Shown here piece after piece: positions 9,137-42,182 of a stretch of DNA of 64,000 bases. The DNA is from Bacteroidota bacterium. GTDB taxonomy: Bacteria > Bacteroidota > Bacteroidia > AKYH767-A > 2013-40CM-41-45. The stretch covers positions 182,383-246,382 of the forward strand of contig JADKKE010000032.1 of NCBI GenBank assembly GCA_016720655.1, in the 5' to 3' direction. Under the pieces are notes generated by a model. It ran no database searches, was not told the origin of the DNA, and saw nothing but the letters and a program-made list of their open reading frames with translations. The position numbers and the translations under genes are program-made. Positions within the stretch are counted from its first letter, which is position 1. Every line of letters begins with the position of its first letter.

Positions 9137-9478
9137 TCAACTTCCCCGATACGTTGTAAATCCATATGGACTCAGCAACAGTGGAATGTGATAATGTTTG
9201 CCATCAGAAATTTCAAAAACCAATTGAACATATGGGTAAAACCCTTTCAGTTTTTGTCGGGAAAAATAGTCGGCTGTCTCAAAAGTCATTCGGTAAATTC
9301 CGGGTGAAAGGATCACATCTGTTTTGAGTAAATCAGAAACGCGACCGTCCGCATTTGTAACTCCATTGCCTAGTGCAATCCATTCATTCAACCCCGAAAT
9401 GGTTTCAAATGTAACTTTGATTCCTTGTGCCGGACTTCCTTTTGAAGTGTCCAATACATGTGTAGTAATCTGACTCAT
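9137..9478 (-). CDS. uraH: 5-hydroxyisourate hydrolase (transthyretin-like)
   Basis: 113 aa with the HVLD... motif and the C-terminal YRGS signature. Located within the purine-catabolic cluster. Confidence 0.9.
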   Translation of the reverse strand: MSQITTHVLDTSKGSPAQGIKVTFETISGLNEWIALGNGVTNADGRVSDLLKTDVILSPGIYRMTFETADYFSRQKLKGFYPYVQLVFEISDGKHYHIPLLLSPYGFTTYRGS

Positions 9479-9978
9479 GAAAGTAATTTTTCTAAACGTA
9501 ATCGTGTTATTTTGCCTTGTTCAATGGCAGCAATTTGCAATTCTGTTTCCCGTGTATTGTGAATGCGTGCATTCAGAAGTTCGAGCATTTCTTCAGCACT
9601 TTTCCCTGTTGCACAAACGATGAAAATAAATCCAAATTTTTGCTCGTATGCTTCATTGCCACCGGCAAGCTGTTCGAGCGTTTTTTGAGAAGCGGAATTT
9701 ACTGCTGCTTGTTCATTTCCGGCTAGTTTACTGGTACTGGCAAATTTTTGTTCCAGACTTTTCAAATCGCCGATTTTAGGATGATGAGAAAATGCCTCGA
9801 ACCAATCCAGTTCAGTGGTCTCAGACCAGATTGTATCTGCTTTTTGAAATAAATCAGCCGAGCTTTTGAAGGGTGCTGATGCAAGCATTTTATCCACCCA
9901 TGCTGAGGAGCCACAGCATTTCATTAATTCTTCTTTTAACTGATCTTGTGCTAAATAATTGAGTTCTTGTAAATTCAT
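9475..9978 (-). CDS. uraD: OHCU decarboxylase (2-oxo-4-hydroxy-4-carboxy-5-ureidoimidazoline decarboxylase)
   Basis: Conserved CCGSSAW, HP(K)IG and ...LNARIHNTRETELQIAAIEQ motifs. The ORF extends to 10032, but the likely start is the MNLQELN Met at 9978. Confidence 0.85.
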   Translation of the reverse strand: MNLQELNYLAQDQLKEELMKCCGSSAWVDKMLASAPFKSSADLFQKADTIWSETTELDWFEAFSHHPKIGDLKSLEQKFASTSKLAGNEQAAVNSASQKTLEQLAGGNEAYEQKFGFIFIVCATGKSAEEMLELLNARIHNTRETELQIAAIEQGKITRLRLEKLLS

Positions 9979-9988
9979 AATGAGAAAA

Positions 9989-10999
9989 TCAGCGAATTGT
10001 TCCGAATAATCGTAAGCGACTGATACCACCATCCGGATACATGAACAATCGGATGTGTGTTATCCCATCATGGGGTAAAATTTCTTTTTCAAAAATATGT
10101 TCGTGATCCGCAGAAAGTTTTTGCCTGGGAAGAAGTTCGTTCCATGCGAATTTCCCTGACAAAATATTTTTCTCTTCGGCTTTGTAAATCGTGCAGGCTT
10201 CGATCGAACAGGAGTCAGGATAATTTCCTTTGAAATGGCAAGTGTCAACAAGGATTTTTGAAAGAGTCCCGGCATGTGCCAGACGAATAATTACCCAGTC
10301 TTTGTTGTTTGGAGTCCGGTTACGTTTTGTTTCCCAGCCATCACCCATATTTACTCCTCTTCCGGGCATCAGAAGATTGTCCATGTGTGAGAAAAACATA
10401 TCGTTGCATAAAATTGCTTTGGCTCCATTCACTGCCGAAGCAAGGTCAAGGACTTCATCTTTCTTCACAAGCGACCAGTCTTTGTGTACTTCACCATAAA
10501 CTTTTAGTCGTGCAACTCCACCATCGGGATAGATGTGTAGCTTGATGTGAGTAAAAATATCTTCTGAAGAACAAGCATAAAAATTCTGACTTCCGGGATT
10601 CAAAGGAGATTTCACGAGAATTTCTTTCCAGGAAATTTCGGATGCATCAGGATCTTTTCCTGAAGGGATGTTACATGCTTCTATGCTTGCAAAAGGAGGA
10701 TGATTCCCGAGAAAAAAATTCGTGTCGATATCGAATCCACGGATGAGTCCGGGAGTACCCAATTGTATAATACACCAGTCGTGACCTTCTATCCGTTTTC
10801 TTCTGGATTCCCATCCATCCATCCATTTGCCGCGGTCTGTGTATTTATCAGCAATGAAAATTCCTCTACCGGGTTTTATAAGATTTTCTTTTTCCGCGAA
10901 AAAATCATCGGTGCATGCTATAGCTTTTGCGCCAAGTTTCTCGGCCGCTAGATTTATAAGCTGCGTAAATGCAGGAGCATTTAGAATTTCGTTCGTCAT
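9989..10999 (-). CDS. alc: Allantoicase
   Basis: Two allantoicase repeats (DGWESRRKR... and GDGWETKRNR...) in 336 aa. Confidence 0.9.
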   Translation of the reverse strand: MTNEILNAPAFTQLINLAAEKLGAKAIACTDDFFAEKENLIKPGRGIFIADKYTDRGKWMDGWESRRKRIEGHDWCIIQLGTPGLIRGFDIDTNFFLGNHPPFASIEACNIPSGKDPDASEISWKEILVKSPLNPGSQNFYACSSEDIFTHIKLHIYPDGGVARLKVYGEVHKDWSLVKKDEVLDLASAVNGAKAILCNDMFFSHMDNLLMPGRGVNMGDGWETKRNRTPNNKDWVIIRLAHAGTLSKILVDTCHFKGNYPDSCSIEACTIYKAEEKNILSGKFAWNELLPRQKLSADHEHIFEKEILPHDGITHIRLFMYPDGGISRLRLFGTIR

Positions 11000-12351: not shown

Positions 12352-12425
12352 CGTTGGTTTTCCTTAAAAATTAGAATGATAAAAAAATCAGTAAATCAAA
12401 AATACGGAATTACAGAAAATTAATA

Positions 12426-13745
12426 TTAGTCAGTAATCTTTGCACCCTGATCAATCCAATGACCAATCAGTTCGCGTTCCGGATCAGTTATTCCTGTTTT
12501 ATTTCCCTGAGGCATTGTCTTCGTTTGAACAGCTCTCACCAAAATTCGTTGGGCCATTTTCTGAATTTGTTCAGGTGTATCAAAGACGACACCACCAGGC
12601 GCAATTTTCTGCAAATCATCAGTAGGGCTTGACGAATGACAGCTTATGCAACGGCTCTTAAAGATAGGCTGAACCTCCTTAAAAGAAACCGTCTTGTTGT
12701 ATTTGCTATTCGTTGATACAGGTGCAGTTACGATGATCAAGGCCAGTAAAGCAATCACAGCGAAGGGGATAATCCACGCTGCATGCTGACCTTTTTCATG
12801 CAAATTGATGTAGTGACGAACGGCAACACTTCCAAGTGTCAGCCCGGCAAGTACGGCCCAGTTGAAAGTATTTCCAAATGTTGCCGGGAAATGATTGCTG
12901 ATCATCACGAAGATGACAGGTAATGTCATGTAATTGTTGTGCAGCGAGCGCAGACCTGCATATTTACCCAGGTTTGGATCGAGTGGTTTTCCAAGTTTGG
13001 CTGCTTTCACCATTGCTTTTTGTGCGGGGATGATCACGAAGAAAACATTCCCGGCCATGATTGTCCCAATCAATGCGCCGATATGAATGAATGCAGCACG
13101 GCCACTAAATACATGGCTGAGAAAAAATGAAATCAATGTAAGGATGAAAAATCCAACAAGAGCAAATGTTTTCTTTTTCTGAATCAGTGATGTCCGGCAT
13201 AAAATATCATAGAGAAACCAGCCTCCAATAAGAGTTCCGGATCCGATACAGATGGCTGCTGCTGATGAAATATTCGCTATGGCAGGATCAATAAGGAATG
13301 TTTTCGCATTGAAATAATACACCAGCATTAATAAAATGATTCCAGTAAGCCAGGTAAAATAAGCCTCGTATTTAAACCAATGCAGTTTCTTAGGCAATTC
13401 ACCGGGAGCAATTTTGTATTTCTCAATGTAGTAGAATCCGCCACCATGAATAGCCCATAAATTTCCTGCAAGTTCATCGCGCAGATTTTCTGTCCGGTTC
13501 AAACTGTTTTCCAGAAAAATAAAATAGAAGGAAGCACCGATCCAGGAAATTCCGAGAACAACATGTGCCCAGCGGAAAACAAGATGAATCCAATCCATGA
13601 CATGTGACCCCATGCCATAATAGTTCACCAGAAAATAAATTCCGTATCCGAAAATGATGGTAATCAATACCCAGGCGATGACTCTTCTGAAAAGGGAAAT
13701 TTCCTCGATAGTTTCTTTTATTTCGTCCAGGTCAGATTGATTCAT
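12426..13745 (-). CDS. puuD: Membrane urate hydroxylase PuuD-like (polytopic membrane domain plus C-terminal cytochrome c)
   Basis: About 9 TM segments and a single C-terminal CISCH heme-binding motif. Its position between xdhB and allantoinase fills the urate-oxidation step that is otherwise missing. Confidence 0.55.
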   Translation of the reverse strand: MNQSDLDEIKETIEEISLFRRVIAWVLITIIFGYGIYFLVNYYGMGSHVMDWIHLVFRWAHVVLGISWIGASFYFIFLENSLNRTENLRDELAGNLWAIHGGGFYYIEKYKIAPGELPKKLHWFKYEAYFTWLTGIILLMLVYYFNAKTFLIDPAIANISSAAAICIGSGTLIGGWFLYDILCRTSLIQKKKTFALVGFFILTLISFFLSHVFSGRAAFIHIGALIGTIMAGNVFFVIIPAQKAMVKAAKLGKPLDPNLGKYAGLRSLHNNYMTLPVIFVMISNHFPATFGNTFNWAVLAGLTLGSVAVRHYINLHEKGQHAAWIIPFAVIALLALIIVTAPVSTNSKYNKTVSFKEVQPIFKSRCISCHSSSPTDDLQKIAPGGVVFDTPEQIQKMAQRILVRAVQTKTMPQGNKTGITDPERELIGHWIDQGAKITD

Positions 13746-13778
13746 TGAAGAGAGAAAGGAATGATATTTTTGTCAAAA

Positions 13779-16123
13779 TCAAGATATATTTTGTTTTTTC
13801 CGGATGTCTTCGATGGAAAGAAGAATCACTTCGTTGGTTGCAGGCAAACTAAAATGTGGTTCATATTCGTGGTTTCCTACAGCCGAAATTGCGTCCTTAA
13901 TGGCAAGCCATGAGCTGAAAGCCAGCATCAGTGGCGGCTCCGCAACGGCCTTGCTTTTCCGGATTGCATTCGGGTTCGGTGCATTTTGCAACAACTGAAC
14001 TCTGAAATCTTCCGGGATGTCCTGAACAGAAGGTATTTTGTATGTATCCGGAGAATGATTCAGTAAATTACCTTTTGCATCCCATTTGATTTCTTCTGTC
14101 GTACACCAGCCCAAGCCCTGAATAAAACCACCTTCAACCTGACCAATATCAATTCCGACATTGATCGAATCACCAACATCGTGTAATATGTCTGTGCGAA
14201 GATTTTTTACATAACCGGTAAGCGTATCCACCAGCACTTCACTCACAGCCATTCCAAAGGAGTAATAATTAAATGGTTTTCCCCAGCCTTTTGTTTGTCC
14301 CAACCGATGTTCGGTGTCGCATAGAAACCGGTTGCGCTCAGACTCACTTGTTTTAAATTAGCGAGTAACATTGCTTCAGCAAAATGCATGTTCCGATCGG
14401 GAAAACTGAGATCTGTAATAATGTCATTCTCAATCACGATATCTATTTCCCTCGAAGGAAAGTCAGGATCGATTTTGCTAAATTCATCGCACATGAGTTT
14501 CACAATGCGTTCGCGAAGCTTATCGATCGCATTTTTCACAGCCATTCCGTTCAAATCTGTACCTGCGGATGCTGCTGTAGCAGAAGTGTTCGGAACTTTC
14601 GAAGTATTGGTTGCATTGACTTTAATCCTGTCAAGGCTAACACCCAATTCAGCTGCAGCAATCTGAGCGATTTTGGTGTTCAATCCCTGACCCATTTCCG
14701 TACCGCCGTGATTTACGAGAATGGTTCCGTCTTTATAAATATTAACCAGAGCACCAGCCTGGTTGAGAAAGGTTGTAGTAAAGGAAATTCCAAATTTTAC
14801 AGGCGTAAATGCAAGACCTTTTTTGTAAAACTCATTCTTTGCGTTGAATGTATTGACTTCAGTTCTGCGTTTTGAATATTCAGAAGAAGCAGAAAGTTGA
14901 TCATACAAAACATGCAACCTGTTCAGTTCGACTTCCTGTCCGTAATGGGTGATGTTGTCTTTATCAATTCCGTAAAAATTGGTTTTGCGTACCAATGCAG
15001 CATCAATTTTTAAAAAACGTGCAATCCTGTCGATCACAGCTTCCATTCCGGCCATTCCCTGTGGTCCGCCAAAACCTCTGAAAGCCGTATTGGACGGGAG
15101 ATTGGTACGATAGGCTTTGCCAATCACCTGCATGTTGGGAATGAAATAAGAATTGTCGGCATGCAACATGGCTCGCTCAAGGATTGCCATGCTTAGATCC
15201 GTTGCACATCCGGCATCTGCATTTTGTTCAAACTTCAGTGCTACTATTTTTCCCGATGCATCAAAACCCGCTTCGTATTTGATCAGATAGCGGTGACGTT
15301 TCCCTGTGATTTTCTGGTCATCATCACGAAACAATCGAATGCGTACCGGACGACCTGTTGCATTGGCAAGCAGTGCGGTCCATGCAGCAGTATGATTGGC
15401 TTGTGTTTCTTTTCCACCGAAAGCACCGCCCATGCGACGAATTTCCACAACGACTTCGTTTTTTGGAATACCGAGAACTTCTGCAACAATCGCCTGGGTT
15501 TCGGATGGATGCTGAGTAGATGAATAAATATTCATTTCACGGCCTTCACCGGGTACAGCCAGACAGGATTGTGTTTCAAGGTACCAGTGTTCCTGCGCTC
15601 CTGTTTCCAGTTCGCCCTTGATGGTGTGCGGAGAAGTAGCAAGCGCTGCGTCAGCATCCCCTCTTTGCATCGCGCGGGGAGGAGCAAGCAGTGTTCCTTT
15701 TTCTATAGCAGTGCGAATGTCAAGCACAGGTTCGAGTATTTCGTATTCGATGACAACAAGTCTTGCGGCAGCTCTTGCCAGTTCTTCGTTTTCTGCAGCG
15801 ATCAGTACAATTGCATGACCTACACAGAGCACTTCTTTTTCAGCCAGACAAGGTTCATCGTGAATCACCGGGCCCATTTGATTGTGACCGGGAATGTCTT
15901 TGGCTGTAATCACAGCATATACACCGGGAAGCTTTTTTGCTGCAGAAGTATCAATCGATTTGATGCGTGCATGCGCATGCGGACTATATAAAATATGTCC
16001 ATGCAGGAGTTGCTCATTCACGAGCATATCGTCGATGTATACCGACTCGCCACTTACATGTTTACTTGCGCTATCGTGAGGAATATTTGTCATGAAAGGT
16101 TTAGTACCCAAATGGGCGATCAA
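13779..16123 (-). pseudogene. xdhB: Xanthine dehydrogenase molybdopterin-binding subunit XdhB, interrupted by a 1-nt frameshift in a poly-A run (may be a homopolymer sequencing error)
   Basis: ORFs 14243-16123 (626 aa) and 13779-14303 (174 aa) are consecutive parts of one about 800-aa Mo-cofactor subunit. Adding one A at 14289-14292 yields ...NIGWDKQKGWGKPFNYYSFGMAVSEV, as in intact XdhB. Confidence 0.8.
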
Positions 16124-18453: not shown

Positions 18454-19071
18454 TTGAATACTAATGCTTTCGTAACTTGGCCCCGGAAAAGTAAAACGGT
18501 GGTCAACGAAGACACAAATATCTTACAGGCCTTAAAAAAAGGAGATGGAAAAGCCTATGAATCCTTATTCAGAAGCTATTACCAGCGACTTTGCAGCTAT
18601 GCCAATACATTATTGAATGACCCCGATGAATCCGAAGAAGTTGTACAACAGGTTTTTATTCAGGTTTGGGAAAGGAGGGAGGCGATGGAAATAAACATTT
18701 CTATTCAGGCCTACCTTTTTAAAGCTGTCCGAAATTCCTGTTTGAATAAATTGAAACACGGAAAAGTGCGGCAAATTTATGCGGAAGAAGTCACAGCTCT
18801 TGCCGGACAATCAGAACCTGCCAGTCAAATTACTTTGCAAAATGAATTGCAGGAACAAATCCATCGCGCCATTGAAAGTCTGCCTGAACAATGCCGGATC
18901 ATTTTCAAATTGAGTCGATTTGATGAACTAAAATACGCAGAGATTGCAGAACACCTTGGCATCTCAATTAAAACAGTAGAAAACCAAATGGGTAAAGCCT
19001 TGAAAGTAATGCGGGAGAAATTGAAGGACTATTTACCCTTACTCATATTTTTAATTTCATCATGCCTCTGA
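18454..19071 (+). CDS. RNA polymerase sigma-70 factor, ECF subfamily
   Basis: Region 2 (VQQVFIQVWERREAM) and region 4 HTH (ISIKTVENQMGKALKVMREKL). The next gene is FecR-like. Confidence 0.85.
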   Translation: MNTNAFVTWPRKSKTVVNEDTNILQALKKGDGKAYESLFRSYYQRLCSYANTLLNDPDESEEVVQQVFIQVWERREAMEINISIQAYLFKAVRNSCLNKLKHGKVRQIYAEEVTALAGQSEPASQITLQNELQEQIHRAIESLPEQCRIIFKLSRFDELKYAEIAEHLGISIKTVENQMGKALKVMREKLKDYLPLLIFLISSCL

Positions 19072-19075
19072 TCGC

Positions 19076-20081
19076 TTGAAAAACAAATTCGAAAATATCG
19101 AAGACCTGATAGCTAAATTCCTTGCAGGAGAAGCTAGTTCTGAGGAAATCCATATCCTTGAGGAGTGGAAGAATCTGCATGCCGATAATCTTCGGGAGTT
19201 TAATCAAATGAAGATGTTATTTACAGAAAGCGCGACATTGAAGCCCTTGCTTTCTGTGAATAGCGACAAAGCCTGGCTTGCAATTCAGCAAGCAATTCAA
19301 CTTGAGAAAGGAAGAGTGGTTCAGCTTCACAAACGAAGCAATTTGCAAACGGCACTAAGAATCGCAGCGATTTTCATTTTTATGGCAATGATTGGTGCGG
19401 TGATATATTTTATGACGAGTCCACTTGCCGGATCGGAACATGAAATTGCAACGGGTGATAGTATACAAAAAAAGTATGTTGCCGGATGGCAGCGAAATTA
19501 CATTTAATAAACACAGTTCAATTCAATATGCTTCAAATGCATATTCAAAAAAACGTGTTGTGAAATTAAAAGGCGAGGCTTTTTTTGACGTGAAACACAA
19601 TGAAACGGTTCCATTTATTGTTGAAGCAGGCGCACTTCAGATTCAGGATATCGGAACAGCTTTCAATGTGAAAGCACAGCAAAATTCCGGAATCATATTT
19701 GTTTCGGTTGTGTCCGGTGAGGTAAAAATAATAACTGCGGAAGATAAATCAATTCTACTTTCTGCCGGAGAAGCAGCATCCTATAATAGCGCAACCATGG
19801 AATTGAAAAAATCCGAAGAGATTGATAGAAACGCCTCTGCTTACAAGGATAAGATATTTATTTTTGAAAATGCAGAGTTAATCCACGTACTGAAAACCCT
19901 GAATGATATTTATTACTCAGACCTTCGAATAGGAGATGATAAAATTAGTTCATGTCGGATAACTGTTTCATTCAACAATGAGAAAATTGAAGATATCGCA
20001 GATGTCATTGCACTGACTTTAGGTCTCTCACTTCAAAAAAGTAATGGAACTATAACTTTTCATGGAGATGCATGCAAGTAA
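19076..20081 (+). pseudogene. FecR-family anti-sigma factor, split by a 1-nt frameshift in an A7 run
   Basis: ORFs 19076-19507 (N-terminal cytoplasmic part plus TM) and 19425-20081 (FecR domain LPDGSEITFNKHSSIQY...LKGEAFFDV...IGTAFNV). Adding one A at 19467-19473 gives ...GDSIQKKSMLPDGSEITF. Confidence 0.75.
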
Positions 20082-21883
20082 ATGTTCTTTGTATTTTCTG
20101 ATTCTTGCCCTGTTTTTGTTTTCCAATGAAATAAAAGCACAGATTCCTTTTCTGGAAAAGAAAATATCTGTGCAGGTCAGGAATTTACCTGTAGACGAAC
20201 TGTTGAAAATTATCTCTCAAAAAGGAGAGTTTACATTTTCTTATAGCACTCAATTAATACCGGAGTCAAAAACAGTTTCTGTACAAGTTCAAAATAAAAG
20301 TGTGCGTGAAATATTGGACCTTGTTTTTGAAGGAAAAGTGGCTTACAAGGAGAGAGGTAAACACATCATTCTACAAAAAGCTGAACTCTCAGCTCTTGGT
20401 AAGGAGCCTGAATACATCATTGTAAGCGGATATGTAAAGGATGCAACAAACGGCACCGAGGTTTCTCAGGTTAGTATTTTTGATAAACTCAGCAGGGTTT
20501 CAGCACTGAGTGATCAGTACGGATTTTTTACACTTAAAATAAAAATAAAGGATAAGTTCAGAGATGTGACCTTGTTTGTAAACAAAGAAAATTATCAGGA
20601 TACAATTGTGTATATTAATCAGAGCGGGCACTCTGTTCTTAATATAACAATGTATCCGGACGAGAAGATTGTGACCTACGTGGATTCATCTGCTATCCGG
20701 GATAGTATTTTTACAGTTAATCGACTGGCACTGGTGAACATGATATTAAGTGAGCAGGAGCAGGCCAATACGCGAAATATCAAAGATACATTGTATCGGA
20801 AGTTCCAGGTTTCATTCCTTCCCTATCTTGGTTCTAACCTGAAGTTGAGCGGAAATACTGTGAATGATTATTCATTGAATATTTTAGCGGGTTATTCAAT
20901 GGGAACAAAAAAACTGGAAATCGGAGGGCTGCTTAATCTTGATCGTGATTCAGTAAAGGTTGCGCAGATCGCCGGACTGATAAATATCACCGGAGGTCCT
21001 GTGCAAGGCGCTCAGGTTGCCGGTTTGATAAATTACAATCTGCGGCCTGTAAAATGTGTGCAGGTAGCCGGATTGGTCAATACGAATATGGATTCGGCCC
21101 GGGCGGTTTCCATAGCAGGATTACTCAATGTAAATCTCTCTCCCGCCAAAGGATTTCAAGTCGCAGGTCTTATGAATTTTAATCTGAAAACATCAAAAGT
21201 TGCGCAAGTAGCAGGCTTGATAAATGTCACCGCAAAGGGAATTCAGGGAGTACAGATTGCGGGTTTGATGAATGTTTGTCTGGATACGATTAAAGGCGGA
21301 CAAGTGGCCGGATTGTTAAACATTTCCAAAACAGTGATCGGATCCCAAGTTGGCTTTCTGAATATTTCAGATACATGTTCGGGAATTCCTGTCGGCTTTC
21401 TAAGTTTTGTCCGAAAAGGTCTGCATCAGTTGGAGATTTCTTCCAATGAGGTTTATCCACTCAACGTTTCTTTCCGTACCGGTGTACGACAATTCTACAA
21501 CATTTTCGAAGCGGGAATGCAATTCAAAACTCCGGAAGACCATACCTGGTATTTGGGTTATGGTGTGGGTACTGCCTTGTCGCTTAGTAATAATTGGCAA
21601 CTGGATTTTGATTTCACAATGAATCAACCGATCCGGGGCAATCGTTTCAATGAGTTTAATTCGTTAACAAAAATTAACATTGCAGCAGAGGAAAAAAATT
21701 GGGAAAGGATTTTCTATCGCTGCTGGACCAACATTAAATATATTATACGCAAATACTTCTGATCCTGACTACGAAGGCTATCTGAATCGTATTTCACCCG
21801 GAAGCTTTTCAAGTTCAAGTATTTCCGGGGATTACAAGCGAAGCATTTGGTTAGGTGCTAAAATAGGTTTGAGATTTTTCTAA
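20062..21883 (+). pseudogene. STN-domain outer-membrane protein with a CarboxypepD_reg-like domain, about 9 tandem approximately 20-aa AGL(I/M)N repeats and a C-terminal beta-barrel-type ending. It is split by a 1-nt indel in an A7 run
   Basis: Signal peptide, STN motif (ISVQVRNLPVDELLKIISQKGEFTFSY) and repeats VAQIAGLINITGGPVQGAQVAGLINYNL... The C-terminal piece (21680-21883) ends ...KIGLRFF. One fewer A at 21692-21698 gives ...AAEEKIGKGFSIAAGP. Confidence 0.5.
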
Positions 21884-29600: not shown

Positions 29601-32600
29601 TCCTGCCTGCGAAGAATATGTGTGAGGATATGGACCTGCACTTGTTGCTGTTCCACCCCAAGGCAATGGATACGAACCACCGTCACAGATCGCATGCGTT
29701 TCTGAAGTTGAATATGTTTGATTTACATCAATATTGATTGTTACCAAACTATCACATCCTGCCTGCGAAGAATATGTGTGTGGATACGGACCTGCACTTG
29801 TTGCTGTTCCGCCCCAAGGCAATGGATACGATCCACCGTCACAAATCGCATGCGTTTCAGAAGTTGAATACGTTTGATTTACATCAATATTGATTGTTAC
29901 CAAACTATCACATCCTGCCTGCGAAGAATACGTGTGGGATATGGACCTGCACTTGTTGCTGTTCCACCCCATGGCAATAGATACGAACCACCCTGACAGA
30001 TCGCATGCGTTTCTGAAGTTGAATACGTTTGATTTACGGTGATATTAATCGTTACCAAACTATCACATCCTGCCTGCGAAGAATACTGTGAGGATATGGA
30101 CCGGCACTTGTTGCTGTTCCACCCCATGGCAATGGATACGAACCACCGTCACAGATCGCATGCGTTTCTGAAGTTGAATATGTTTGATTTACGGTGATAT
30201 TAATCGTTACCAAACTATCACATCCTGCCTGCGAAGAATACGTGTGAGGATACGGACCTGCACTTGTTGCTGTTCCGCCCCAAGGCAATGGATACGATCC
30301 ACCCTGACAGATCGCATGCGTTTCTGAAGTTGAATACGTTTGATTTACGGTGATATTAATCGTTACAAGACTATCACATCCTGCCTGCGAAGAATATGTG
30401 TGAGGATATGGACCGGCACTAGTTGCTGTTCCACCCCAAGGCAATGGATACGAACCACCGTCACAGATCGCATGCGTTTCTGAAGTTGAATATGTTTGAT
30501 TTATGGTGATATTAATCGTTACCAAACTATCACATCCTGCCTGCGAAGAATAAGTGTGAGGATATGGACCTGCACTAGTTGCTGTTCCTCCCCAAGGCAA
30601 TGGATACGATCCACCCTGACAGATCGCATCGTTTCTGAAGTTGAACACGTTGATTTACGGTGATATTAATCGTTAAGACTATCATCCTGCCTCGAATAAT
30701 GGCGGATGGACCGGCACTAGTTGCTGGTCCACCCAAGGCAATGGATACGAACCACCGTCACAGATCGCATGCGTTTCTGAAGTTGAATATGTTTGATTTA
30801 TGGTGATATTAATCGTTACCAAACTATCACATCCTGCCTGCGAAGAATACGTGTGAGGATACGGACCTGCACTTGTTGCTGTTCCTCCCCATGGCAATGG
30901 ATACGATCCACCGTCACAAATCGCATGTGTTTCAAGTAGAATACGTTTGATTTACGGTGATATTGATTGTTACCAAACTATCACATCCTGCCTACGAAGG
31001 ATACGTATGAGGGTATGGACCTGCACTGTGTGCTGTTCCACCCTAAGGCAATGGATACGATCCACCGTCACAAATCGCATGTGTTTCAGAAGTTGAATAT
31101 GTTTGATTTACATCAATATTGATTGTTACCAAACTATCACATCCTGCCTGCGAAGAATATGTGTGAGGATACGGACCGGCACTAGTTGCTGTTCCTCCCC
31201 ATGGCAATGGATACGATCCACCGTCACAAATCGCATGTGTTTCAGAAGTTGAATACGTTTGATTCACTACTAGTTCAGTTGTAATCGTACTGTCACAACC
31301 AGCTTGATTCGGAATATGAGTGACATACGTACCTGCTGTTGTCTGTGCTGTGCCCCCTGGTGGAGTATAACTTTGTCCAAGACAAATTGGAACAGTTGTA
31401 TTGCTGCTGCTGTTCGCGGTTGATAAAGTCACATAAGCGGTATCTCTTCCGATACAACCATTGAGAGGATTCGTTACTGTGAGAACATAGGTTCCGACAG
31501 CATTAACAGTTGGAGTCGCTGAATTTGGATTCAGGGAAATATTTCCATCTGTTGTCGTCCATGCAAATTGTGCATTTGCTGTGGTCGATGAACCATCCAG
31601 AGTTGTACTTCCGGCTACACAAAGGAATTGTTTATCCTGACCTGCATTTGCATTCACAACAGGTGGTTCAGAGATTGTAAAAATATTGCTCGCGGTACAA
31701 TTCCCGTTGTCTGTAACAGTCACTGTATAGGTTCCTGGTGCGAGACCCGATAGAGTTTGAGTATGATCTCCCGTATTCCAGTCATATGTGAATGGAGCAA
31801 CGCCATCTGAATGTGCAGTGATGGATCCATCGTGAGCGCCATTACAGGTAACATTGTTTACATCGGCGGTAACTGTTACAATTCTCACTGTAACCACCTG
31901 GTCAGCGGCACCGGCAAGAATACAGGCATCGCCACCAATGATCCGTCGGAAGAAAGTTTTTACATACAACTGGCCGATTGTGGCACCGGGAAGGTCTTGA
32001 GCATTGGCACCACTGATCGGATCCCAGTTTATACTGTCAGTACTAATCTGCCATTGATAGGTTGTAGCCGAAGGCAATGCAGGATAGGGAGAAGTAACAC
32101 CATGTCGAATAATCGTCGGCAGGACATACGCTGGAATGGAACCCGGTAAATCATCTGGGATAGTTCCCGCACAAATCGTCTGGTTACCCGTAATAGTATT
32201 TCCGAGCAGGTCAGGAGGATTTGCCCAAACAACTAAACCCGGTTCATATGGAGTAGTACTCACGCGAGTCGTATTGAGTGCACCTTGTGTAAGTGGAATG
32301 TTATTCGATTTGGAAGTAACAATTGTATAAATCCTGCAATTGTAAAATTTAATTCCTCTTTCTCCAACAGGATCATAATCATCACCGGCTCCACCATAAT
32401 ACGTACTGAACAAGAGTTCTGATAAGTCTGATTTTAATTTACAAAATATCTTATCATTGTTTCCAAGATTTGTTGTTTGCAATGGAACATTCGGGCTTGT
32501 TGTTACGGGAAAGTTGGTACTGTTGGTATATCCAAAAATATACACATCATTGTTCAAATCAGTATTCAATCCCATCATGTTCACTTCGTTTGCACTTCCT

Positions 32601-34516
32601 CCCAGATAGGTAGAAGAAACAAAGTTTTGATTGGTATCCATGCGACATACAAAAAAGTCATTTGTTCCGGTATTGTAACCGTTGTCATATGTACCGGAAG
32701 CTGAAATATTCGATGCTGCCAGTCCGCCTGTGATTCCACCAAAATACAATTGAGTTTTTAGTGTATTGAATTCCATGCATAGAATAGAAGTTGACTTACC
32801 ATTCGCTGATTGAAAGTAAGAAGACCACACAGTGGAACCTAAAGAATTCAATTTTTGAATAAAACCACTTTGCGTTCCGCCCAGTGTTGCTTGTCTTGGG
32901 GATGTGGTAGGGAAATTTGGTGAATCAGTGTAACCGGCCACGAAAATATCCTGGTTTGAAATATTTTGTAGCATGATTGTCGCCTGATCGGTACCGCTTC
33001 CGCCATAATTTTTCATCCATGAAATAGCGCTGAGATCCTGATTGATTTTGAACACAATCACATCAATTCCTGAATGACCATTACTTGCACCGGTAGATGG
33101 ATAGAGAGTAGAAAGATTTCCACTAGCAGTATTTCCACAAATTACTACATCTCCAGCTTCGTTGATACGTAAATCGAAGGAACCATCATCACCATCGCCA
33201 CCAATAATCGAACTCTTGATGGATTGACCATCCTGAGTGATTTTCATGATAAAAATGTTATCCGTGGCCTGATTGCTTTGATTAATGCTTGATCCGCTGA
33301 ATGCTGATCCGCCGATCAATGGAAAATTGGTGCTTGATGTGTATCCCGTGATGTAAAGATTTCCATCCGGTCCTTGTTCCATTGCATATGGGTTGTCATC
33401 CTGGTTTCCTCCAATATAAGTTTGCCATACGCGAACACCCGGATCACCAATAGTTCCCGGTTCTGTGTATTTCCCAACAATCATTTCAAGATTTCCGTTA
33501 GCGGATACATCAAATGCGCCTACGGTAATCTGATCTGTAGTACCTACAACACGAGCAACCATGTAGATTGCACCGTCATTTGGATCAACCCAGATACAGT
33601 GACCATGGTTGTCTCCACTTGAATTTGTGTTCACCCAGGTAGCCCAACGCAAGGCAATCGGATCGATGATCAGAGGTTGATTTTCATCGTATTCACCCAA
33701 TTGAAATTTTAGTGTATTGTGATTGGATACAACATATTTAGCTACAACTTCTTTTTGAGTTCCATTTATCTTTTGATAGACAACGGGTGAAGGGAAGTCC
33801 ACATCACCAACACTGGTATGCATAATCAAGTGTCCATTTTCCTGAACATCCATCTGTTCAATACCATCAAAACGAATTGCGATTTGTGAATTATCAAATC
33901 CTGGTTTACAAACAATGTCATACTCAAGAGTTCCTTCTGCAGAGGGATAATATCTGACATCTACATTCGGATAAACATTATTGTACCAGATTTCTCCGTA
34001 ACTGTTCACATGTGTGATCGACTGATTTCCTGAAAAGAAATTTGCAGGATCGGAGTGAACATCTTTACTGGTGATTGTCATTGATGTAGAATGATTCAAA
34101 AAATTCATCATCCAGCCATGCCCCTTCAACCCGGTTGTAAGTCTGCGATGAATGCCTGTTTCCTGCATTATTTTTTCGATCTCTATACCTTCAGCTTCCC
34201 GTGCAGCGATCGAAGCAGGATCGTATGTTGCGATCATCATTCCATCCTTTGTTGCCACTGCTTTACCGAGAGGAAAGTCTGCCTTATACAAAGTTGGCTC
34301 AGAAAATTGTCCTTTGTTCTCTGTAAAATAGATTTGCTTTCCATAGTATTTAAGCATGTCCTCGATGGCTTCGCTATGGCCATTTTGTTCCTGACTTCCG
34401 CTTTGTGCAGAAAGCTGGAGGCACTGGAGGACAAGTAAAGTGAATGATGCAAAAAATAGTTTGCAATGCATCTTTACATTCACAACTTTTTGATGAAATG
34501 TAGTTTGTGTTTTCAT
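26628..34516 (-). pseudogene. Giant (about 2600 aa if contiguous) T9SS-secreted cell-surface adhesin-like protein. Domains are signal peptide, SBBP beta-propeller repeats, SprB repeats, 18 copies of a 52-aa tandem repeat, 6 copies of a 75-aa Cys-bracketed Ig-like repeat, and a T9SS C-terminal sorting domain. The reading frame is broken in the repeat array
   Basis: N-terminus at 34516 (MKTQTTF...SFTLLVLQCLQLSAQ). C-terminus ...YPNPLSSTTTIEFRN...DGVYLFKIICGDAIETGRLTLIRE is a Por_Secre_tail. SprB repeat: VTCNGAHDGSITAHSDGVAPFTYDWNTGD...TVTVTDNGNC. The ORF fragments 31043-34516, 30682-30897, 30052-30648, 29897-30127, 29235-29972 and 26628-29165 all encode the same repeat. Confidence 0.7.
28440..31270 (-). 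repeat. Intragenic tandem array of about 18 copies of a 156-bp (52-aa) unit with near-identical DNA. The unit is PWGGTATSAGPYPHTYSSQAGCDSLVTINI(T/D)VNQTYSTSE(T/S)HAIC(D/Q)GGSY(P/S)L
   Basis: Period read directly from the sequence: gatattaatcgttaccaaactatcacatcctgcctgcgaagaata... recurs every 156 bp. The copies at 30600-31040 carry many small indels and substitutions. Confidence 0.85.
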
Positions 34517-36809: not shown

Positions 36810-38813
36810 TTAATTCCTGCTTAATTTCTTAAATGGATTACTAAAGTTTTTGTCAGAAATAAAAACCGAATCACTAAGTGTTTTCAAAAAAGCTATAATA
36901 CTTTGCTGTTCTTCTTTGGAAAGATTTGCTCCATGTTTATTTGCAAATTGCATCTTTGAATCCAAATTCACACAGTTCTTTACACCGGAACTATAGAACT
37001 CAAGAACTTCTTCGAGGGTCTTGAATCGACCATCATGCATGTAGGGTGCTGTGAACAATAGATTGCGTAGAGATGGAATTTTGAATTTTCCGATGTCTTC
37101 TTTTTTTTCTGAAATTCCTCCTCTTCCTTTGTCAGGATAAAACTGAACATCGACAACTGAGTCAAGTCCATTGTTGCTAAAAGTTAATGTTGTTCCTAAA
37201 GCATCTCCGTCAGTGGGATGACAATGCAGACAATCGCCTTTTGTTTGATCGTTCACCAAAACAAAACCTTTGATCTCATTTTCAGTAAAATGATCTTTCC
37301 CTGCAATGACCCTGTCATATTTAGATTGATTGGATAAAAGACTTCGTAGAAATTGTGAAAGAACATTTGAAACTTTTTCGCTGTCAATTTCTCCGGCACC
37401 AAAAATTTCCTGGAACAAAGATTTGTAATAGTTGTTTTCATTAAGTCGATTGCAAAGATCTTCGGGGTGCATATTCATCTCATCCGATGCTGTGATAGGG
37501 TGAAAGACCTGATTTTCGATTCCTGTAGCTTTTCCATCCCAGAAGAATGAAGGATACCAGGCAAGATTGAACAAGGGCAATGTATTTCGCGTCATGAATA
37601 CACTGTTTTTTCCTTTACTGAATTTATTCGGTGCATCACTGAAAGCATACTTCTGCTGATGACAAGATGAACAGGATAGGGTGCTGTCTGAGCTCAGGAT
37701 GGGATCATAAAAAAGTTGTCTGCCCAAATTAATTCCCTCATCCGTGATTGTGTAATGAATTGGCAAAGGCATTTCCGGAAAGAATTTCATTTCCGGAAAT
37801 GCATGCGGACTGAGACCGGATTTAGCTCCAAGGAAAAGGAGTGAAAGTACGATCAATTTCAACCCTGGTTTCGAGAGTTGTTTGATCCTTGTAGAATTCA
37901 TCGTTGAATCAGCAAAGGGAATAGTTTCAGACTGAATATTGGTCTTGACTTTCAGGTAGTACATTCCGTTGGCGAATTTGCCGGTGTCGAACCAGAATTT
38001 AGTAGGAACATTCGTCCATTTTTTTACCAACTCTCCGGTTGAATTGATAAGTTCCATGTCTTCAATGATGTGATAGGCAAGTACTTTTCTTGCTTCAACG
38101 TGCACAATCTCTCTTGCCGGATTCGGATATACGTTTAGATAATTTGCCTGGTCCTTTTCCTTGATCGTGTGAATTAAAGTAATACTCGACCACATGTTGT
38201 CAATGAGCCATCCTTCCTTTTCACTATTGACAGAATCGCTTAATAAACTGAACCGTGCCAGGACGGTGTCAGGAAAAGTACTCATCCACGACAAATCAAA
38301 ACACAGCCAGATGTTTTTCCAACTTGAATCCGTACCACTGAATCCGATTTCTCCGGAAGGAAGTGTGTCAACATTTGCGGTATCAAAACCATAGAAATTG
38401 TAAACGTAAGCATTGTTGAATGCATTCTGCCAACTTAGGCCGTGGTCAATAGAAAATTCAATTGTTCCAAGATCACCACTAGAATCAATATCCAGTTTTT
38501 GTAACCATTGAATCGCCAATATTCCCCACCAGAACTGATTTAAAACATTGAAAGTAAACCTGCTCGTATCATTCACAGGATAATAATTCAAAGTATCTGT
38601 TACAATAGCATTTGGTGCAGTCGCTGCACTGTCAAAGATTATTTTCTGTGGATGTCCGATTTGCCAAACATTTGATACGCTTGTATCGGTTTCGATGAGT
38701 ATTGAGTTCTGTATAGAAGTATCAGCTCCATCAAAATATTGTGTAAAAAATTGAGCAGTTGAAATTTGACACGAGAAAATAAACAAGATGATAAATGTGT
38801 ATAATTTAGCCAT
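36810..38813 (-). CDS. In-frame fusion or read-through. A roughly 300-aa N-terminal module with signal peptide and T9SS C-terminal sorting domain is joined to a di-heme cytochrome c peroxidase (CCP/MauG family) that has its own signal peptide and could start at 37901
   Basis: T9SS tail NYLNVYPNPAREIVHVE...ANGMYYLKVKTNIQSETIPF at aa 225-300. After 4 residues follows MNSTRIKQLSKPGLKLIVLSLLFLGAK (signal peptide), then CSSCH, CLHCH and PSLRNLLFTAPYMHDGRFKTLEEVLEFY. There is no stop codon between the modules. Confidence 0.65.
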   Translation of the reverse strand: MAKLYTFIILFIFSCQISTAQFFTQYFDGADTSIQNSILIETDTSVSNVWQIGHPQKIIFDSAATAPNAIVTDTLNYYPVNDTSRFTFNVLNQFWWGILAIQWLQKLDIDSSGDLGTIEFSIDHGLSWQNAFNNAYVYNFYGFDTANVDTLPSGEIGFSGTDSSWKNIWLCFDLSWMSTFPDTVLARFSLLSDSVNSEKEGWLIDNMWSSITLIHTIKEKDQANYLNVYPNPAREIVHVEARKVLAYHIIEDMELINSTGELVKKWTNVPTKFWFDTGKFANGMYYLKVKTNIQSETIPFADSTMNSTRIKQLSKPGLKLIVLSLLFLGAKSGLSPHAFPEMKFFPEMPLPIHYTITDEGINLGRQLFYDPILSSDSTLSCSSCHQQKYAFSDAPNKFSKGKNSVFMTRNTLPLFNLAWYPSFFWDGKATGIENQVFHPITASDEMNMHPEDLCNRLNENNYYKSLFQEIFGAGEIDSEKVSNVLSQFLRSLLSNQSKYDRVIAGKDHFTENEIKGFVLVNDQTKGDCLHCHPTDGDALGTTLTFSNNGLDSVVDVQFYPDKGRGGISEKKEDIGKFKIPSLRNLLFTAPYMHDGRFKTLEEVLEFYSSGVKNCVNLDSKMQFANKHGANLSKEEQQSIIAFLKTLSDSVFISDKNFSNPFKKLSRN

Positions 38814-39042
38814 AAGCGTTAGTTTGATTATAAAATTATAATAAATATTAAGGCAAGAGCATTTTCCATGATATAAATTGTGAAGTATCGCTTTTTGTTG
38901 GCGAATTATACATTCATGCCATGGTTTGATTTTGTGCCTTAAACCAGGAATTCATCTTTGGCAGAATGAATAAAAATCTATTATCTTACGCTACCGGATG
39001 GATGATTTATTGTAAACTATTGTCCAATCAATAGATATTTTT

Positions 39043-40233
39043 ATGCGCAAAGTGAACCTTTTTATTTTCATTGCATTTTGCCTGACTTCTTGTCTTCAGA
39101 ACACATCGGAAAAAGTAAATACCAAAGCAAGCGCAGTAGAATCAGATGAAATGGTTCTAGCGCCGGGCAAATCCGCTATGCGTTTGCTGACAGATCGTCC
39201 TCCAAATCTGGAAACTCCTTTGCATTACTTTTTAATGGACTATACTCCCAATGATGTTTTCTTCGTGCGCTGGCACATGTCAAATCTTCCTCCTGAAATT
39301 GGAACAGATACATTTCGATTACGGGTCGGAGGACATGTAAAAAATAATGTGGAACTATCGTTAAATGATTTGAAAACGAAATTTACGCCGATCTCAATAA
39401 CTGCTCTTGCGCAATGTGCCGGCAATTCAAGGAGTTTTAATGACCCCCATGTACCGGGTGGACAATGGAAAAACGGTGCGATGGGGAATGCGAAGTGGAC
39501 AGGAGTAAGATTGTCGGACGTACTGAAAATGGCCGGAATTAAAAATGGTGCTGTTGACGTTTCGTTCAATGGCATTGATGATCCGCCATTACCCGGAACT
39601 CCTGATTTTGTAAAATCACTTCGTCTCGAAAAAGCAATGGACGGAGAAACCATGATTGCATATGAAATGAATGGCGAGCCATTGCCATTGCTCAATGGTT
39701 TTCCGTTGAAACTTGTAGTACCGGGTTGGTATGCGACTTACTGGATTGGAATGTTAAATGATATTACTGTCCATGCGGATACATTTGCCGGCTTTTGGAT
39801 GAAAAAGGCATACCTCGTTCCCCAAAATAACCGTGACGGAAATGAAAATCCGGATAGCCTTTCACAGAGCATGGAGCCGATAAACAAAATGAACGTTCGG
39901 AGTATTTTCGTCACTCCTGAGCCGGATAGTTTGATTCAGACCGGAAGTATTTGTGAAATACAAGGACTTGCTTTTGATGGTGGTGATGGGATTCAAAAAG
40001 TTGAATTGTCTGAAGATAATGGGAAGACATGGAAAGAAGTTAATCTTGATGCTGTGCTTGGAAAATATTCCTGGAGAAGATGGCGCTATTCCTGGAAAGC
40101 CAATACGGCAGGAACATATATTTTCAAAATAAAAGCAACAAACACTCTTGGAGAAACACAACCCGAGCATCATTGGAACAGAAGTGGATACATGCGAAAT
40201 GAGATTGAAGTATTAAAGCTGGAGGTAAAGTAA
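39043..40233 (+). CDS. Sulfite-oxidase-family molybdopterin oxidoreductase (SorA-like sulfite dehydrogenase catalytic subunit) with lipoprotein-type signal
   Basis: ALAQCAGNSRSFNDPHVPGGQWKNGAMGNAKWTGVRLSDVL contains the Mo-ligand Cys motif of the SO family. There is a C-terminal Ig-like dimerisation domain. Confidence 0.65.
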   Translation: MRKVNLFIFIAFCLTSCLQNTSEKVNTKASAVESDEMVLAPGKSAMRLLTDRPPNLETPLHYFLMDYTPNDVFFVRWHMSNLPPEIGTDTFRLRVGGHVKNNVELSLNDLKTKFTPISITALAQCAGNSRSFNDPHVPGGQWKNGAMGNAKWTGVRLSDVLKMAGIKNGAVDVSFNGIDDPPLPGTPDFVKSLRLEKAMDGETMIAYEMNGEPLPLLNGFPLKLVVPGWYATYWIGMLNDITVHADTFAGFWMKKAYLVPQNNRDGNENPDSLSQSMEPINKMNVRSIFVTPEPDSLIQTGSICEIQGLAFDGGDGIQKVELSEDNGKTWKEVNLDAVLGKYSWRRWRYSWKANTAGTYIFKIKATNTLGETQPEHHWNRSGYMRNEIEVLKLEVK

Positions 40234-40581
40234 ATGAGTATGAAATATGTCTTATTTATTTTTATTTTCTGGATGATGCAATCGATCTTTTGTTCTTGTT
40301 CAGAACCAACAACAAAAGTTGAGACTACTGACGGACATGATGCTGTGCTTTCTTTGAGTGATGCCGGTTATCATTTGCCCGATCGTCCGGGTTATGATTT
40401 GTTTTTATCCAATTGCGGTGTTTGTCATTCCTACAGATATATCCAGATGCAACCCAATTTCTCACGTAAGACATGGGAGAAAACCGTGGATAAGATGATT
40501 CATACTTTCGCTGCCCCAATACCGGATTCTTCCGTAATTCCTATTGTAGATTACCTCATGGCAGTTCGCGGAAAGAAATAA
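40234..40581 (+). CDS. Monoheme cytochrome c (SorB-like electron-acceptor subunit)
   Basis: Signal peptide and a single CGVCH motif in 115 aa. The start codon abuts the sorA-like stop. Confidence 0.55.
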   Translation: MSMKYVLFIFIFWMMQSIFCSCSEPTTKVETTDGHDAVLSLSDAGYHLPDRPGYDLFLSNCGVCHSYRYIQMQPNFSRKTWEKTVDKMIHTFAAPIPDSSVIPIVDYLMAVRGKK

Positions 40582-40827: not shown

Positions 40828-42182
40828 ATGTCTAAAAATACCACTCCTTCCGGACTGAAACGTGAACTATCCCTTGTCCAGGCAACGGCGATTAACATGA
40901 TTGATATGGTTGGAATTGGTCCCTTCATCGTATTGCCCTTGGTGATAAAAATGATAGGAGGGCCTCATTTTATTTTTGCCTGGATTGTTGGTGCAGTGAT
41001 TTCCCTGGTGGATGGAATGGTTTGGGCAGAACTTGGGAGCAGCTTATCCGAAAGCCGGAGGGAGTTATAATTTTTTGAAGGAAGCGTATGGGAGAAAAGG
41101 AGGGAAGGTGCTTTCGTTTTTTATACGTGTGGCAGACACTAATCCAGGCTCCATTAGTTGCAGCAAGCGGAGCGATTGGTTTCGCACAGTACTGCACCTA
41201 TTTGTACCCCTTCACACCTGTTCAGCAAAAAATGGTTTCAGGGAGTATCATCATTTTATTGGTGTTCTTTCTTTACAGGAAAATTGAAACCATTGGAAAA
41301 ATCAGTGTAATGTTATGGGTTGCAGTTCTTGTGACCATTAGTTGGATGATCTTCGGAGGAATCACCTCTCATACGATTTCGAACAATTGGATTCCGGATA
41401 ATCATTCTGATTTGTTCGGCAGTTTGTTTTTCTTTGCGCTCGGACAAGCATCTGTAAAAACTATTTACAGTTATCTTGGGTATTATAATGTTTGCCATCT
41501 TGGCGGAGAGATCCGCAATCCAGGAAAAAATATTCCACGAAGTATTTTCATTTCTGTTTTCGGTATCGCTTTCCTTTATCTCGCCATGAATATCAGTGTT
41601 GTGAGCGTGATTCCATGGCAGGAAGCACAGAATTCTACTTTTATCGTGAGCACCTTCATTGAACGAATTTATGGCCATCAAGCTGCAGTAATAGCTACCG
41701 GTTTGGTACTTATTGTTGCGTTTTCCTCCTTGTTTGCTGTGTTGCTCGGTTATTCCCGCATTCCGTATGCAGCAGCAGTGGATGGACAATTTTTTCCTGC
41801 ATTTGCGAAACTTCACCCAACAAAGAATTTCCCTCATATTTCATTGCTCTTCCTCGGAGGTGCCGCATTTATCTTCAGTCTGCTTTTTAAGTTAAGCGAT
41901 GTAATTAGTGCGATATTGGCCATGAGAATTCTTGTTCAATTTATCGGACAAGCAATTGGTGTTATATTACTGCGAAAGAGAAACGGAACGGCACATCTTC
42001 CGTATAAGATGTTCTTATATCCACTCCCTGTTATCCTTGCGATTTTAATCTGGATTTTTATTTTCGTCTCAACTGGGTGGAAATTCGTACTTTCAGGGCT
42101 TACTGTGATGTCAATAGGGGTAATCGTTTACTTGCTAATGCCTCCTTTTAAGCCGGAAAGCCGGGCTGGTGAGGTAAGATAG
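40828..42182 (+). pseudogene. APC-family amino-acid permease disrupted by two frameshifts
   Basis: Three consecutive ORFs encode one permease: ...MVWAELG / AAYPKAGGSYNFLKEAYGRKGGKVLSF / LYVWQTLIQAPLVAASG.... The first shift is near 41035-41038 (an extra a in ggga). The second is an extra T in the T6 run at 41117-41122. Confidence 0.7.

Follow-up and report, generated by a model that had tools for sequence, protein, structure and literature searches.

An apparent fusion of a T9SS cargo module and a MauG-type di-heme enzyme, most probably two overlapping genes merged by one extra T

How does a T9SS sorting domain, normally the last element of a protein, come to be followed by a complete di-heme enzyme in a single reading frame? 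The locus that raises this question lies in a 64-kb stretch of DNA (the window, meaning the whole stretch that was analysed) and consists of a stop-free 667-aa ORF on the minus strand. The ORF list confirmed its presence, and inspection confirmed both the hydrophobic signal-like segment at its N-terminus and an internal ATG at 37901, corresponding to residue 305, which opens a second signal-like segment. The first-pass annotation had left three explanations standing, namely a lost stop codon, a sequencing error and a genuine fusion. We conclude, with a probability of about 0.93, that the ORF joins, on paper only, two neighboring genes that overlap in translation, and that a single extra T is the cause. 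The features on which the argument turns are as follows.

36810..38813, minus strand: 667-aa ORF of the ORF list, an apparent two-gene fusion probably made by a +1-nt frameshift
37898..38813, minus strand: the probable true upstream gene (gene 1, the module), 304 codons plus TGA after removal of the extra T, with signal peptide, MAM-like jelly-roll and T9SS CTD
38754..38813, minus strand: signal-peptide-like N-terminus of the module, MAKLYTFIILFIFSCQISTA, by inspection
37901..38132 (extra base included), minus strand: T9SS type A C-terminal sorting domain, residues 228-304 of the repaired protein
37914..37916, minus strand: frameshift site, TTT with one extra T (AAA on the plus strand), directly after CCC at 37917-37919
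37898..37901, minus strand: ATGA overlap, in which the module TGA (37898-37900) overlaps the enzyme ATG (37899-37901)
Junction peptide of the assembled fused frame: ...ETIPFADSTMNSTR
36810..37901, minus strand: di-heme MauG-type enzyme of the MbnH-like branch (gene 2), 363 aa with its own signal peptide (PF03150, 1.3e-48)
37821..37901, minus strand: signal-peptide-like N-terminus of the enzyme, MNSTRIKQLSKPGLKLIVLSLLFLGAK, by inspection

In exact look-ups, no record matched the 667-aa ORF, the 363-aa enzyme or a neighbouring 396-aa protein.

Reading frames at the junction

Pfam placed Por_Secre_tail (PF18962) at residues 228-295 and CCP_MauG (PF03150) at residues 359-507 of the 667-aa ORF, and the NCBIfam model TIGR04183 covered residues 228-297. 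As assembled, the ORF carries a recognizable sorting domain with 368 residues C-terminal to it. The T9SS domain had been described as complete; its identity is borne out by both models, but in the assembled frame the match breaks off at profile position 66 of 72 (TIGR04183) or 68 of 75 (Pfam). The missing end is present in the DNA. The junction reads ...GAA ACT ATT CCC TTT GCT GAT TCA ACG ATG AAT..., and its +1 frame translates as ...L K L F P L L I Q R *, ending in a TGA that shares bases with the ATG. Deletion of one base from the CCC·TTT run (37914-37919) yields a 304-aa protein ending ...ETIPLLIQR*, such that the +1 frame, not the assembled one, supplies the final beta-strand of the sorting domain (LLIQR). 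The supposition of a lost stop codon was consequently wrong in mechanism, as the TGA is retained at 37898-37900 and has been put out of frame by a 1-nt insertion 14-16 nt upstream of it. The true sequence at 37914-37916 would then be TT rather than TTT. The extra T would make gene 1 continue in the reading frame of gene 2 from five codons before its own stop, so that FADST replaces LLIQR and translation reads through into gene 2.

Profile comparisons favored the repaired version. TIGR04183 matched it over positions 1-72 of 72 with 36.5 bits, versus positions 1-66 and 34.8 bits for the assembled version, while PF18962 gave 34.7 and 34.4 bits, respectively. Repaired or assembled, the module exceeds the curated cutoffs of both models (23 bits for TIGR04183, 27 bits for PF18962). 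A family-specific HMM, built from 80 homologues with the window sequence excluded, scored the repaired protein at 459.1 bits; the assembled protein reached 455.1 bits, and truncation at residue 299 gave 453.9. Random five-residue tails scored 455.1 ± 1.2 bits on the same HMM, one of 200 equalling the repaired score, and the last profile position was aligned by the repaired version only.

These details bear on the proposal of a genuine, selected fusion, in which an internal sorting domain would leave the module tethered to its modifying enzyme. Fusions of a partner to its enzyme do occur in this enzyme family: P0006 and P0009 each join an MbnP domain to a di-heme enzyme in 587 aa. However, neither of these has an internal signal peptide or an out-of-frame ATGA stop at the join, whereas at the window junction a second signal peptide is present in full and the out-of-frame stop within ATGA is intact, and the fused frame destroys the last CTD strand. 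Together with the comparative evidence below, this makes a selected fusion very improbable.

Homologous loci and a near-identical contig

In the closest relatives returned by the first protein search, the two halves are separate proteins, encoded on contigs by adjacent or overlapping genes. A scan of one genome per species recovered the module at 80 Bacteroidota loci, with identities of 40-68%, and the pair was found in 78 of 80 genomes sampled, across many Bacteroidota lineages. The module ends in a stop at the family C-terminus in all 81 distinct homologous loci, none of which is fused, and a di-heme gene lies downstream in 79 of them, mostly at -4 to +12 nt from the module stop. The check for a stop codon between the modules in orthologues, suggested at the outset, thus came out the same way at every locus. 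Four of the 79 paired loci (L003, L039, L078 and L082) share the ATGA overlap. Among these, L003 is the closest genome relative (68% identity); its module ends IESETIPLLIAR followed by TGA within the overlap, and the stretch from GAA to TGA measures 30 nt there versus 31 nt in the window. A search with the module only returned 406 homologues, of which the best 120 are proteins of 302-373 aa carrying PF18962 only. No fusion was present among the 81 loci or these best 120 of 406 homologues.

Metagenome contigs were then scanned with a pattern that bracketed the homopolymer and allowed either run length. One contig was returned, Ga0138256_10200085 (L083), which aligns to window positions 37521-39308 (~1.8 kb); the two sequences are 96.8% identical and have 52 mismatches. 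The alignment has two gaps only, one base at 37914 and four intergenic bases at 39009-39012, so that CCCTTG in L083 versus CCCTTTG in the window is the sole indel within the two genes. L083 reads ATT CCC TTG CTG ATT CAA CGA TGA, and its 304-aa ORF ends ETIPLLIQR*, which is the protein predicted by the one-base deletion. The enzyme ATG lies within an ATGA overlap in L083 too; with the same ATG and the same overlap in L003, this upholds the earlier proposal that the enzyme starts at 37901. The sorting domain stands at the extreme C-terminus after removal of one T, in L083 and in 81 of 81 homologous loci; in this genome it would do so if the extra T is an error. An uninterrupted junction, the mark of a genuine fusion, was seen in none of the 81 loci and none of the 120 best homologues, and the 96.8%-identical contig has two genes.

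The same comparisons argue against programmed +1 ribosomal frameshifting at CCC_UUU_G, in which the 304-aa module and a fusion product would arise from one gene. A +1 shift at a Pro codon ahead of a U-run does resemble a slippage-prone sequence. Yet no shift is needed to reach the module C-terminus in any of the 81 homologous loci or in L083, the site differs from its relative in run length only, and it has neither a stop or rare codon in the A site nor a stimulator. We regard this explanation as even less credible than a selected fusion. L083 is decisive evidence for the two-gene reading.

Assembly error or mutation

The locus comprises two genes rather than an evolved fusion whether the extra T is an assembly error or a real mutation, and behind the apparent fusion lies an artefact or, failing that, a trivial frameshift confined to this strain. 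L083 belongs to a different strain (3.2% divergence) and therefore reports the ancestral state, not the true sequence of this genome. Evidence on the origin of the extra base came from the rest of the window, where four further frame disruptions, all at homopolymers, were found in three conserved genes.

~14265-14290: frameshift in an XDH-type molybdopterin subunit, split between ...GWDKQK and GWGKPFNYY..., within CAAAAGGCTGGGGAAAACC
near 19466-19472: frameshift in a FecR-type anti-sigma factor, split at an A7 run
~41035-41040: first frameshift in an amino-acid permease, GGG in place of GG
near 41120: second frameshift in the same permease, at a T6 run

When the frames were stitched together, full-length Pfam matches emerged: MoCoBD_2 over 2-283 of 283 (312.7 bits), AA_permease_2 over 1-409 of 427 and FecR over 2-97 of 97. 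A SusC-like ORF at 20062..21762 was considered as a truncated gene and rejected, as it ends in a typical ...LRFF* barrel terminus; it was not counted as a frameshift. Including the junction, there are five frame disruptions in 64 kb, or ~1 homopolymer indel per 13 kb. Five homopolymer indels among otherwise intact genes form the pattern that marks an assembly prone to indels.

In view of the four further homopolymer frameshifts in the window, the extra T is most likely an indel introduced by sequencing or assembly, in which case the organism itself would have two normal genes. All five disruptions fall in otherwise well-conserved genes, two of them in one gene; on both sides of each, the frame stays open and matches its family; the LLIQR* tail is perfectly kept in the +1 frame; and the extra base is absent from the near-identical contig. 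A genome rich in recent pseudogenes would look alike, however, and errors are less typical of a 3-nt run than of runs such as the A7 and T6 found at two other sites. One of the permease shifts, GGG for GG, is likewise at a 3-nt run. Of the three options first put forward, sequencing error is therefore the best supported, by the extra base in a homopolymer and by the four other disruptions of this kind.

Our second choice, distinctly less probable, is that the extra T is a real, recent and strain-specific frameshift mutation. The base is present in the sequence as given, slippage mutations occur in short runs, and the other frameshifts in the window could be real as well if the lineage accumulates pseudogenes. 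Against this, five homopolymer indels would have to have disabled four of about 55 genes in a window that shows no other sign of decay. Furthermore, the module differs from that of L083 at 26 synonymous and 10 non-synonymous codons; as this divergence is mostly synonymous, neither copy is decaying. Were the mutation real, the module would lack the last strand of its sorting domain, bear a 368-aa extension and fail to be sorted by the T9SS, while production of the enzyme could continue from its own ATG, though uncoupled from termination and reinitiation. Truncation studies of RgpB have reportedly shown that export requires the residues at the very end of the CTD. We still favor an assembly or sequencing indel as the origin of the extra T, and odd ORF architectures elsewhere in this assembly deserve distrust.

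The gene pair and its relation to known systems

With the frame repaired, the product of gene 1 is a Trp-rich MAM-like jelly-roll protein that carries a T9SS type A sorting domain; among its Trp residues, W50, W103, W165, W169 and W202 are invariant. Its N-terminus, MAKLYTFIILFIFSCQISTA-Q, is by inspection a predicted Sec signal peptide, residues 2-18 being modelled as one helix, and the sorting domain shares the Ig-like beta-sandwich fold of known T9SS substrates. No likeness to MbnP was detected: the module has no PF20243/TIGR04052 match, hhalign against the MbnP domain of P0006 gave a probability of 0.2%, and no MbnP structure was among the fold matches listed for it. The window also encodes a SprB-repeat protein at 31043..34516. 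This protein and the Bacteroidota relatives are consistent with, and in a 64-kb window no proof of, a T9SS-encoding host.

Gene 2 had been called a typical di-heme CCP. The CCP_MauG domain and the CSSCH, CLHCH and PYMHDG motifs were all confirmed; the enzyme is nevertheless of MauG type and not a typical canonical peroxidase. Its diagnostic residues are listed here.

37659..37673, minus strand: first heme-binding motif CSSCH, enzyme residues 77-81 (C, C and H invariant in 74 paired enzymes)
37539..37541, minus strand: inter-heme Trp121 in FWDG (W in 66 of 74 paired enzymes)
37218..37232, minus strand: second heme-binding motif CLHCH, residues 224-228 (invariant in 74 paired enzymes)
36993..36995, minus strand: Tyr303, predicted axial ligand of the six-coordinate (E) heme and MauG-type signature (74 of 74 paired enzymes)

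Trp121 aligns with FWDGRA of the canonical enzymes 3O5C and 6QKN. In an ungapped alignment Tyr303 falls on MauG Tyr294, opposite the Met ligand of the Nitrosomonas europaea enzyme 1IQC. PYMHDG is invariant in the 74 paired enzymes, as are Tyr303 and both CxxCH motifs, and hydrophobic N-termini equivalent to MNSTRIKQLSKPGLKLIVLSLLFLGAK occur in the paired enzyme genes with an assignable ATG start (72 of 79). The best solved relative was PDB 6E1C ("Di-heme enzyme"; E 1.2e-46, full length), which we take to be MbnH, an assignment supported by the MbnH family being the top NCBIfam model; solved canonical peroxidases matched at ~1e-30 and MauG at ~1e-23. That model, TIGR04039, scored 216.4 bits, below its cutoff of 362.85, and the MauG model TIGR03791 scored 173 bits, below its cutoff of 444. 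With a sub-cutoff TIGR04039 score and an adjacent gene that is not MbnP, the enzyme falls outside the MbnH family proper. [quoted passage not shown]

A sigma-70/terminator scan, weak for Bacteroidota, found neither a promoter nor a terminator between module and enzyme, so the promoter sought upstream of 37901 did not materialize. The best site, TTGCCT-18-TATAAT at 38856-38827, lies upstream of the module ATG, a position consistent with co-transcription of the pair, although the 8 sites detected do not exceed the 8.9 expected from shuffled sequence. Genes 1 and 2 would be co-transcribed, with translation of the enzyme probably coupled to termination of the module. Sec would export both products, and the enzyme would receive its hemes in the periplasm. 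There it would use H2O2 to oxidise a residue of the module, as MbnH does MbnP, after which the T9SS would export the modified module with loss of its CTD. MauG-type enzymes oxidise protein substrates with H2O2, and formation of a bis-Fe(IV) state with H2O2 is a further biochemical property of the class. MbnH installs kynurenine in MbnP from a Trp (PMC11951088, PMC11892367). From conserved adjacency and the analogy to MbnH/MbnP we infer a functional link between enzyme and module. We tentatively suggest, while thinking it somewhat improbable, that the pair is a maturation system in which the di-heme enzyme installs a protein-derived cofactor in the cargo before T9SS export; candidates are a kynurenine or quinone derived from Trp, which might form a metal site. 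A literature search found no paper on the pairing of a T9SS cargo with a MauG-type enzyme. The fusion is not novel; the underlying gene pair may be. As a by-product, the analysis defines a widespread, uncharacterised Bacteroidota operon, T9SS cargo then MauG-type enzyme, which is a modest lead but a testable candidate for a new protein-derived-cofactor system.

Compared with known cases, the junction is identical to an ordinary ATGA overlap in a co-translated operon combined with a homopolymer indel error; nothing differs. From T9SS type A CTD cargo, such as RemA, NucA and RemZ of Flavobacterium or mirolase, the assembled protein departs in having an internal domain with the last strand missing, which is the artefact. 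The enzyme resembles MauG, which acts on pre-methylamine dehydrogenase, in its tyrosine (Tyr303/Tyr294), its PYMH(D/N)G motif and its di-heme architecture. MauG also acts on a protein substrate encoded nearby, as we propose for the window enzyme. Similarity to MauG is lower, however (E 1e-23), and neither a mau operon nor a TTQ-type substrate is present here. The closest parallel is MbnH/MbnP (PDB 6E1C, 7L6G), with which the pair shares the His/Tyr-type E-heme position, the inter-heme Trp, two CxxCH motifs and the tight coupling of the enzyme gene to a gene for a Trp-rich, signal-peptide-bearing protein. The gene order differs, being partner then enzyme in the window, and the partner is not MbnP but a MAM-like jelly-roll with a T9SS sorting domain; it is therefore predicted to be exported out of the periplasm, unlike MbnP. 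If the proposal is true, the logic of MbnH/MbnP would be applied to an unrelated substrate fold with an extracellular destination.

The gene pair and its distribution

The gene pair consists of a gene for a Trp-rich, T9SS CTD-bearing protein with a MAM-like jelly-roll and, directly after it, one for a MauG-type di-heme enzyme; it is kept in 78 of the 80 Bacteroidota genomes (L003-L082) with homologues of the first gene. The loci covered comprise this set together with L001, L002 and the metagenome contig L083. Spacing between the two genes is mostly -4 to +12 nt, and conservation does not extend to the surrounding genes. No description of the pair was found in the literature searched.

Among homologues recovered by protein search, P0006 and P0009 (587 aa, ENA metagenomes) are true fusions: a single chain carries an MbnP domain (PF20243) at its N-terminus, joined to an MbnH-like di-heme enzyme, the latter portion being 41-42% identical to the window enzyme; an internal signal peptide is absent at the join. 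P0002 is a 373-aa called product (L001 3284-4405, JAYSYX010000040.1). Its called start appears to lie ~66 codons too early. Homologues all start at the Met of MKNLYALTLL...; from that Met, the protein would be ~307 aa.

Split genes and other features of the window

Three further genes of the window are interrupted by frameshifts, and a large SprB-repeat protein is also encoded.

Features of the window, with neighbors of the split genes
13779-16123, minus strand: xanthine-dehydrogenase-type molybdopterin subunit, two overlapping ORFs (14243..16123 and 13779..14303)
9475..10032, minus strand: OHCU decarboxylase, purine/urate cluster
9989..10999, minus strand: allantoicase, purine/urate cluster
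19076-20081, plus strand: FecR-type anti-sigma factor, split (19076..19507 and 19425..20081)
18454..19071: ECF sigma factor, flanking the FecR-type gene on one side
20062..21762: STN/CarboxypepD_reg outer-membrane protein, flanking it on the other
40828-42182, plus strand: amino-acid permease, two frameshifts ~85 nt apart
31043-34516, minus strand: 1157-aa protein; domains DUF7948, SBBP beta-propeller repeats, a SprB repeat

The frameshift in the xanthine-dehydrogenase-type subunit lies at ~14265-14290, inside CAAAAGGCTGGGGAAAACC, and stitching of the frames gave a single 781-aa protein with a MoCoBD_2 match of 2-283 of 283. Window 9137-16123 (minus strand) is a cluster for purine or urate catabolism that includes this subunit, with gene overlaps of 4 nt and 44 nt. 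The FecR-type gene is broken at an A7 run near 19466-19472 and yielded 334 aa when stitched (FecR match 2-97 of 97). In the permease, GGG replaces GG near 41038 and the second frameshift, near 41123, falls in a T6 run; joining the frames gave 451 aa (AA_permease_2 match 1-409 of 427). The 1157-aa protein is probably another large T9SS-type protein, surface or gliding-related.

The divergent molybdoenzyme genes

39043-40581, plus strand: sulfite-oxidase-type molybdoenzyme (396 aa; Oxidored_molyb plus Mo-co_dimer) and a 115-aa protein

The divergent intergenic region separating the T9SS-CTD protein gene from the molybdoenzyme gene contains a 4-nt indel (window 39009-39012 versus L083 1488), with ATTG present in the window; this is the sole other gap between the window and L083, which are 96.8% identical. 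The 115-aa protein carries a CGVCH heme motif, and its ATG at 40234 abuts the molybdoenzyme stop at 40233. Together the two resemble a SorAB pair, and they run divergently from the operon of the T9SS-CTD protein and di-heme enzyme.
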